Shown: piece after piece, positions 61,808 to 62,705 of the stretch | How positions within the stretch are numbered: the first letter of the stretch is position 1 | How the letters are laid out: each line of letters starts with the position of its first letter | DNA from: Octopus vulgaris | Taxonomy: Eukaryota | Direction of reading: 5' to 3' | NCBI GenBank assembly: GCA_951406725.2 | Contig: OX597834.1 | Coordinates: 7,626,001 to 7,690,000, forward strand | Length of the DNA: 64,000 bases | Notes under the pieces: model-generated | What the model was told of the DNA's origin: nothing | The model's input: only the letters and a program-made list of their open reading frames with translations | Database searches by the model: none | Program-made: the position numbers and the translations under genes

Positions 61808-62705
61808 TTTCACTACACACAACATGGACCAAATTTCTTCTTAAGAAAAAATATATATTCAAATAAGTAAAACTTAATATCATGAATAGCGATAGCGAAA
61901 CCGGTCGATATATTAAAAATTATATTAAAACTATGTAAGTGTGCGTATTTTCCATTTTTAAATTTCTTATATATATATATTTATCTCTCTTAATAAATTT
62001 ACTTATCGTTCAATTACTCTGCATCCAACATGACATGACTCTCACCGTATTTCACCTTTCTTTCTCCCTTTCTTGTCTTTTCTTTTTATTTATTTATTTT
62101 CCACTCTGATGAAGCTGTATGATTCAAATCGACTTTATTTACAGCTATGATAAATATTCTCTTAGAATCATAATGGTAATTCCAAAGAACATTTTCAGCA
62201 GAAACAGCTGTGAGAAAGGATGCAGTTCTTTTGTAAATTAATCATAAATAATATTTGATGCAAAGTAATTGTTGTTCATCAGAGTTATCTCCATTTCCTG
62301 TTTTCTTTAAATTTTGATTCCTGATAAACTCCTGTTTATCCTTGTCTTTACCTATAAGATATGAGTATAACATATGTGGCTATGTTTAAATATATGTTAT
62401 ATACCTGTATTATTGTGGATGCTTTTATCCCTTAAGCGGTTATTTTAACCTCTAACTCAACTAACCTTACAAATATGTGTGTGTATGTGTGTAGAGTGAT
62501 TGAACGATAAGTAAATTTATATATATATATACATATATATATATAAGAAATTTAAAAAAGGAAAATACCCGCACTTACGTAGTTTTAATATAATTTTTAA
62601 TATATCGACCGGTTTCGCTATCGCTATTCATGATATTATGTTTTACTTACTTCAATATATATTTTTTCTTAAGAAGTAATTTGGTCCATGTTGTGTGTAA
62701 TGAAA
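61808..62705. mobile_element. Tail-to-tail inverted pair with A3-U8 hammerheads (family H11) enclosing another pLTR-like piece
   Basis: Arms about 61808-62022 and 62490-62705. ATATC-ATGAATA-GC gata GC-GAAAC-CG-GTC/GATAT at 61877-61911 (+) and 62602-62636 (-). The inner motif at 62102-62216 is CTGATGA-A-GCTG..CAGC-A-GAAAC-AGCT-GTG. Confidence 0.8.

Follow-up and report, generated by a model that had tools for sequence, protein, structure and literature searches.

Hammerhead ribozyme chemistry involves the 2′-OH of nucleotide 8 and G12 together with a tertiary pair between nucleotides 3 and 8, in which the base at position 8 works mainly by pairing. Every Watson-Crick pair at 3-8 is reportedly cleavage-competent, with rates that depend on the context. 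The core has been treated as near-invariant, and searches use CUGANGA, at most supplemented by U3-A8.

The closest described systems are the minimal type I hammerheads from Penelope-like elements (PLEs); these have a short stem I and lie in the pLTR behind an ORF with reverse transcriptase (RT) and GIY-YIG domains (PMC4209133; see also Lunse et al. 2017). Palindromic stems III for dimers, dispersed truncated copies, and opposite-strand pairs are also described in the accessible text of PMC4209133, and all of these features recur at the locus studied here. U3-A8 is a known covariant of PLE hammerheads, with ~1,300 instances in Schistosoma (Cervera and De la Pena 2014, PMC4209133). It is also the only variant pair reported in the accessible text of a survey of natural core variants, in which 3-8 covariation is described and a stem II of 2 bp is often seen, with Przybilski and Hammann 2007 cited for the activity of covarying 3-8 pairs (Perreault et al. 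2011, PMC3088659).

Engineered swaps have indicated that pairing at 3-8 is needed and base identity is not, and that G3-C8 partially rescues a PLE hammerhead (Martick and Scott 2006, referred to by PMC11167929; PMC9901934; available parts). When a type III hammerhead was scanned by pairwise mutation, G3-C8 alone rescued 3-8, the other double mutants were low, and A3-U8 gave no rescue (Roberts et al. 2023, PMC9901934, as far as its available text goes). According to the accessible part of PMC11167929, cleavage by the hammerhead of an Anolis PLE requires protein, insertion in vitro proceeds without the ribozyme, and RNA-seq ends did not map to the cut site.

We analysed a window of 64,000 nt from Octopus vulgaris that contains PLE hammerheads with A3-U8, a pair that occurs here in a natural and amplified form and that gave no rescue in the 2023 scan. 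Natural U3-A8 covariation is already known from the available parts of PMC3088659 and PMC4209133, and the present finding extends it and does not define a new class. What is new, and well supported, is the A3-U8 variant of the PLE minimal hammerhead and the occurrence of all four Watson-Crick pairs as amplified families on one tree; in the accessible text of the survey of core variants, U3-A8 was the only variant pair, whereas this genome has all four pairs, in many copies, and on a tree that can be resolved. None of the 56 motifs in Fig. S3 of PMC4209133, in its available form, has A3 or G3, in contrast to the two families of the window (F1 and H7, both A3-U8) and a derived G3-C8 family. In addition, F1 has a stem II of 2 bp and no bulge after A9, whereas the consensus in that source has 7–8 bp. 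The literature searched contained no natural A3-U8 or G3-C8 family, including the available parts of PMC3884650, PMC6155905, PMC6257768, PMC7229834, and bioRxiv 10.64898/2026.07.22.740005; earlier hammerhead papers or alignments (e.g. Lunse 2017, Perreault 2011) may already show A3-U8.

The window motif and its host element

An earlier note on this DNA had described a 35-nt motif, identical in both arms of an inverted repeat, as a hammerhead whose 3-8 pair had changed in a compensatory manner. Exact copies of this 35-mer lie at 61877–61911 on the forward strand and at 62602–62636 on the reverse strand. It parses as a minimal type I hammerhead with a 5-bp stem I (ATATC/GATAT), a 2-bp stem II with a 4-nt loop, the core A3 U4 G5 A6 A7 U8 A9, then G12A13A14, the palindromic stem III A15.1-CCGG-U16.1 (ACCGGU), and C17. 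In the forward copy, A3 is at 61882, U8 at 61887, and C17 at 61906, with the predicted cut at 61906/61907; in the inverted copy, A3 is at 62631, U8 at 62626, and the predicted cut at 62607/62606. U4 G5 A6, A9, G12 A13 A14, A15.1-U16.1, and H17 are all present, and A3 and U8 stand in place of the literal C3 and G8 of CUGANGA. As the earlier note had anticipated, searches based on CUGANGA miss the motif, because this descriptor cannot match it. A local Rfam search returned no hammerhead at the motif even at E values up to 10, and none was among the 150 matches listed of 353 in the window.

The assignment rests on the sequence parse, on the homodimer fold (see below), and on a descriptor that was compared with shuffled sequences. 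With positions 3, 7, and 8 free, this descriptor had five matches in the window versus 0.05 per shuffled window; the pairs were two A-U, two U-A, and one C-G. The bare heptamer ATGAATA occurs 26 times in the window, and for this string only the context matters. The identity of the two arms had been taken as a sign of selection, a view that the comparison does not bear out. The arms (61807–62023 and 62490–62706; 217 nt, 92% complementary) differ by 17 events, the probability of a clean 35-mer is 0.045–0.06, and the identical run extends over 59 nt, i.e. beyond the length of the ribozyme.

The forward copy belongs to a PLE family termed F1. It is a 5′-truncated element at 61417–61997 (+), with the end of the GIY-YIG ORF, a 3′-UTR, the pLTR with the hammerhead, and a (TA)n end, as judged by similarity to full-length copies; it represents the last 580 nt of the element and has 88–91% identity to the 3′ end of the full-length copies L294 and L301. 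A broken remnant of the ORF C-terminus, the endonuclease end, was found at 61410–61568 (+) by translation and by tblastn with the intact ORF of copy L104 (E 8e-7). An inverted and shorter duplicate of the same 3′ end was located at 62490–62706 (−) by sequence comparison. The two 3′ ends are convergent and have about 27 nt of non-family sequence in common after the (TA)n run, which was found in no other locus among those looked at, and because of these two features the pair probably stems from a local inverted duplication. The convergent orientation differs from the usual back-to-back PLE arrangement and from the pairs of that kind listed for F1. Both window copies are dead, truncated insertions.

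Other F1 copies have RT and GIY-YIG sequence upstream, and F1 copies terminate in (TA)n at one of two points. The PLE ORF has the layout RT, CxxxxCxxC, and GIY-YIG in a single frame. A sister family has an intact ORF of 784 aa with Pfam RVT_1 and a GIY-YIG match just below the cut-off; F1 copies align along the full 784-aa ORF, and in the F1 copy L010 GIY-YIG exceeds the Pfam cut-off. Judged by domain layout, the host appears to be an EN+ PLE of the Neptune/Nematis type. Neptune/Nematis elements share with it the C-terminal GIY-YIG, the Cys-rich linker motif, (TA)n insertion sites, inverted truncated copies, and the optional 3′ tail (PMC8557442). The motif lies on the sense strand in the pLTR behind the PLE ORF; at loci where the upstream ORF survives, the motifs follow its end by 26–770 nt. 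A reading of F1 as a non-LTR retrozyme, i.e. as tandem non-coding units of ~170–400 nt that each carry a hammerhead, was discarded, since F1 consists of ORF-bearing 3′ ends that are dispersed or inverted. Likewise, two same-strand F1 pairs (4.5 and 5.2 kb apart) are local duplications without an ORF between them and not full elements.

A splice-donor-like GTAAGT at 61935–61940 (+), identified by consensus match 28 nt past the predicted cut, is a candidate for the donor of a PLE pLTR intron, and it is retained in most F1 copies. The full-length copies L294, L297, and L298 start nearly alike (oriented ~2843–2885); a pyrimidine-rich site that resembles a splice acceptor follows ~10–20 nt further on, shortly ahead of the ORF ATG, and their 5′ boundary is unlike the sequence after the ribozyme cut. 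F1 was also found in contigs of three other species, and in the most distant of these, in the one covering contig, positions 3 and 8 are unchanged. A metagenome scan with a single PLE protein gave no match.

The same ATGAATA core had been reported at 28389 in a family, H7, that was regarded as unrelated. The core is indeed present at 28389 (+), and a second one at 28368 (−), with a ACCATGGT palindrome; together they form a back-to-back pair of A3-U8 hammerheads at 28340–28417 (28340–28368 on the reverse and 28389–28417 on the forward strand). The first descriptor missed this pair because each copy has one mismatch in stem I, and a looser pattern recovered both. The family is not unrelated, however. 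It represents a second subclade of the same PLE clade, as both families lie downstream of ORFs of that clade, and the endonuclease regions of F1 and H7 have 55–62% identity. Both have a short palindromic stem III for pairing between copies, ACCGGU in F1 and ACCAUGGU in H7.

The window contains further hammerheads at 28914 (+), 59209 (−), 20051 (−), 41154 (+), and 56125 (+), i.e. two with U3-A8, one of a large C3-G8 family (see below), and two more C3-G8 candidates. The spacer between the arms has CTGATGA cores at 62106–62220 (+) and 62284 (−), one of which is followed by GAAA and a palindrome ~100 nt on; these are possibly decayed hammerheads of another family.

Core states and covariation in the genome

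The genome searched comprises 2.8 Gb. The exact 24-nt core yielded 355 copies (control 0), and with seven core positions free 315 F1 copies were found. A hand count of the first 100 of these 315 listed gave 92 with ATGAATA and eight with a single change. The earlier note had proposed the count of 3/8 combinations as evidence, but within F1 such a count is uninformative on covariation, because all copies decay from one ancestral state.

We compared families by a search for any core followed by G-(5 to 17 nt)-CGAAACCGGT, which together with the H7 patterns covers two stem III types. For the stem III ACCGGT, the totals (controls in brackets) were 1,315 (5) for A3, 170 (9) for G3, 5,527 (4) for U3, and 183 (5) for C3. 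A3 cores had U8 in 1,220 of 1,315 cases, compared to a control of 0, which is in keeping with a compensated pair. The other position-8 values were counted by hand in the first 100 rows listed for each class, which follow genome order and are not a random sample. U8 was found in 92 of the A3 rows (A 3, G 3, C 2), C8 in 67 of the G3 rows (U 15, A 13, G 5), A8 in 95 of the U3 rows (G 5), and G8 in 59 of the C3 rows (A 30, U 10, C 1). The estimated family sizes are ~5,250 for U3-A8 and ~110 for G3-C8. Most unpaired rows bear the stem II of the large paired families, which fits decay at single sites. For the H7 group, 82 copies were counted (control 0), and the 30 that were fetched comprised 26 with A3-U8, two with U3-U8, and two chance rows. 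Counted in this way across families, the states of positions 3 and 8 are not independent of each other, as A3-U8, U3-A8, G3-C8, and C3-G8 prevail, and the hammerheads of foreign PLEs are all paired (24 of 24; see below).

A canonical search would miss most of the ACCGGU class, because C3 is present in just 183 of about 7,200 members. Canonical families with other stem III types are still abundant, and one C3-G8 family has 7,214 copies. This family served as a control: single changes at positions 3 and 8 occurred in 3 and 4 per 100 copies, and only two A3-U8 doubles were found, in line with chance. Given the rate of singles, these two copies were read as chance decay and not as a new origin of A3-U8.

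To avoid selection by motif, F1 copies were also chosen by protein. The 30 best matches of the F1 RT protein included 26 aligned stretches that span the ribozyme, and 25 of these have A3-U8. Eight changes in 286 core positions (11 columns) were all singletons, compared to 173 of 2,841 in the flanks, with 29 shared variants (Fisher p 0.02). This contrast gives modest support to purifying selection in the master lineages.

Stem I was outside every pattern that yielded loci, whereas G10.1-C11.1 and G12 were fixed by the search patterns. Stem I is 91% Watson-Crick in the 97 A3-U8 rows (of 165 rows in total). Inside the A3-U8 lineages, compensatory swaps were found from ATATC/GATAT to GTATC/GATAC and from AAGCA/TGCTT to AAGCG/CGCTT; shuffling of the stem I partners over six recurring types gave P 0.004, with relatedness uncontrolled. 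Position 17 is C in 55, A in 28, U in 13, and G in one of the 97 rows, and position 7 and loop II vary.

Stem III is unfavourable in the monomer (+3.5 vs −1.6 kcal/mol, a cost of ~5 kcal/mol), and a single copy cannot close it, so that pairing of two copies through ACCGGU in a tandem transcript is predicted. When two copies are folded together unconstrained, the minimum-energy structure is precisely the double hammerhead. Neither the monomer nor the dimer energy is better than that of shuffled sequences (z 0.5–0.7; −13.3 vs a shuffle mean of −16.7), 383 of 500 shuffles fold as well as the dimer, and the double-hammerhead topology was obtained for only 34 of 59 distinct A3-U8 variants. For these reasons the folding represents compatibility with the model and not a proof of it.

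Evolutionary history of the 3-8 pair

At 80 additional loci and the H7 loci, the A3-U8, G3-C8, and U3-A8 motifs all lie behind ORFs of one PLE clade where the ORF survives. A tree of 23 proteins was rooted with three foreign C3-G8 elements. Rows left out of the analyses were L083, which has the upstream ORF of a neighbouring element, rows with short protein cover, the duplicate loci L016, L121, and L142, and the chance rows L118 and L130. In the protein tree, a U3-A8 family is basal, F1 is sister to another U3-A8 family (99/99), and F1 is separate from a clade of H7 and the G3-C8 family (100/100). Four changes are required, every one of them double. A single clade of A3-U8 and G3-C8 was rejected (p-AU 0.008). 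The separation of F1 from H7 plus G3-C8 means that A3-U8 had either two origins or a single one followed by a reversal, and both histories involve two double switches between U-A and A-U. The earlier argument from recurrence in two families thus fails in that both belong to one clade, yet it survives in that the two do not form a single A3-U8 clade. A first tree without the U3-A8 family of L304 had left the relation of F1 and H7 undecided and was superseded by the 23-protein tree.

In a tree built from the DNA that lies upstream of the ribozyme, G3-C8 is placed inside A3-U8 (100/100 and 100/98). Of 73 rows, 52 were kept, and only the clade of 32 rows was used, because arms of inverted repeats or long branches confound the upper 20. 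The change from A3-U8 to G3-C8 consists of two transitions and can have proceeded via a G·U wobble. We infer that the path in the clade led from C3-G8 to U3-A8, from there to A3-U8 (in two separate steps, or in one that was later reversed), and on to G3-C8.

Among 86 foreign PLE loci, 29 had a match; these represent 24 distinct hammerheads, all on the sense strand, compared to 0.1 in shuffled sequences. All 24 are paired at 3-8 (13 C-G, nine U-A, and two A-U), although they are not 24 independent events, because a single assembly supplied many of them. The ORFs ahead of the two foreign A3-U8 motifs have 27–30% identity to those of the F1 clade, and joining these motifs with the A3-U8 members of this clade was rejected (p-AU 3e-49). 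A3-U8 is thus present again in two foreign PLE lineages that are distant from F1. Independent switches are few, with four in the F1 clade and seven including the distant loci.

The sister family of F1 (L304, L305, L299) is a young U3-A8 PLE family with intact ORFs; it has an extra A after GAAA, the palindrome AACCGGUU, and many open frames of 753–782 aa. Within a U3-A8 family there is a small U3·G8 wobble group (L257, L258) of three copies at two loci, two of which are the arms of one inverted pair. Contigs of one assembly (WLWD01; L171–L213) contain tandem arrays of diverse PLEs with C3-G8, U3-A8, and A3-U8 side by side. PLE ORFs were further found in records that are labelled as bacterial genomes or symbionts (L224–L230, P0025, P0065, P0066, P0074, P0080, P0099), at one locus with two hammerheads; these are probably animal host DNA in the assemblies.

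Probable function of the A3-U8 core and alternative explanations

Taken together, the motif is a minimal hammerhead sequence in a PLE terminal repeat, and the sequence data make it quite likely that A3-U8 is a working Watson-Crick swap of C3-G8 kept by selection on active masters. In a tandem transcript, two copies of the pLTR would be joined by ACCGGU into a double hammerhead, in which A3-U8 would act as the active core's tertiary pair and place the 2′-OH of nucleotide 8 and G12. The RNA would be cut after C17, probably aided by the protein of the element, by analogy with the Anolis PLE, and cleavage would trim the element RNA or free it from read-through transcripts. Selection would have acted earlier, in the lineages that gave rise to the window copies. 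Points that weigh against this reading are the scan in which A3-U8 gave no rescue, the Anolis results on insertion and RNA-seq ends, folding energies that do not surpass those of shuffles, the few independent switches, and the spread of a mismatched C3·A8 core (see below). Dimer action, cleavage, and the role in transposition are drawn from the available parts of PMC4209133, PMC6765202, and PMC11167929.

The strongest competing explanation, which we regard as unlikely, is that the fold and the 3-8 pair are retained because they signal to the PLE protein, as a structure or for dimerisation, that cleavage is slow or incidental, and that any isosteric pair suffices. The poor cleavage of PLE hammerheads in vitro (PMC4209133), the protein dependence of the Anolis hammerhead and its being unneeded for insertion in vitro (PMC11167929), and the failure of A3-U8 in the mutational scan (PMC9901934), each according to the accessible text, are compatible with such a role, and so is the amplification of a mismatched C3·A8 subfamily (see below). 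However, the hammerhead's active conformation includes the 3-8 pair (cited in the available text of PMC9901934), and in the protein-picked sample core changes are singletons only. Moreover, G17, which is harmful to cleavage by minimal hammerheads (PMC3884650, accessible part), is present in only one of the 97 A3-U8 rows, whereas C, A, and U alternate at this position; G12 cannot be judged in the same way from the pattern searches, because it was fixed in the patterns.

It is more improbable still that the motif is a decayed passenger, in which drift, with mutation biased towards AT, fixed A3 and U8 in one master and the two pair by chance. A single ancestral state lies behind all F1 copies, the window has 26–43% GC, chance doubles occur in large families, and the identity of the arms is uninformative, all of which would suit such an origin. 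It is largely refuted already by the four switches of both partners within a single clade, one of them the GC-ward change from A3-U8 to G3-C8, by the two further, distant A3-U8 lineages and the pairing in 24 of 24 foreign PLE hammerheads, by stem I compensation that postdates the origin of A3-U8, and by the better conservation of the core than of the flanks. The proposal that A3 was selected because A3-U4-G5 is the AUG start of the PLE ORF, with U8 compensating, has very little probability: an Anolis PLE ORF does begin within the hammerhead (PMC11167929, available part), and the donor-like GTAAGT after the motif and the acceptor-like site ahead of the F1 ORF ATG would fit, but the unspliced frame from the core AUG stops after 18 codons, the predicted donor-acceptor join is out of frame, the ORF has its own ATG, and sister families with UUG or GUG at the core were amplified too.

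With A3-U8 understood as a working swap, a bolder reading can be proposed, tentatively and with slightly less than an even chance of being right. One PLE clade would have crossed all four Watson-Crick 3-8 states, including A3-U8 and G3-C8, which are otherwise known as laboratory mutants alone, since dimerisation and the protein of the element relax the demands on the core. As A3-U8 recurs in distant animal PLEs, censuses would undercount hammerheads, and some "hammerhead-less" elements may carry such cores; the amplified C3·A8 and U3·G8 forms would show the crossing of a fitness valley. A dated natural series of cores on one transposon tree offers a test of whether PLE spread needs hammerhead cleavage, and of what context lets a pair that failed in the scan work in nature.

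A tandem retrozyme-like repeat of 360 bp (L244–L249, e.g. G000:C4:80857199-80857948; relatives L250–L256) occurs in C3-G8, C3·A8, and U3-A8 forms. Its C3·A8 subfamily comprises 10 copies at six loci with 97–100% identity to one another, ~94% identity to the C3-G8 relatives, and 84–90% identity to the U3-A8 relatives. This subfamily was amplified recently, so a mismatched core is able to spread, which weakens the view that the pair is indispensable, yet possibly supplies a natural intermediate of a pair switch.
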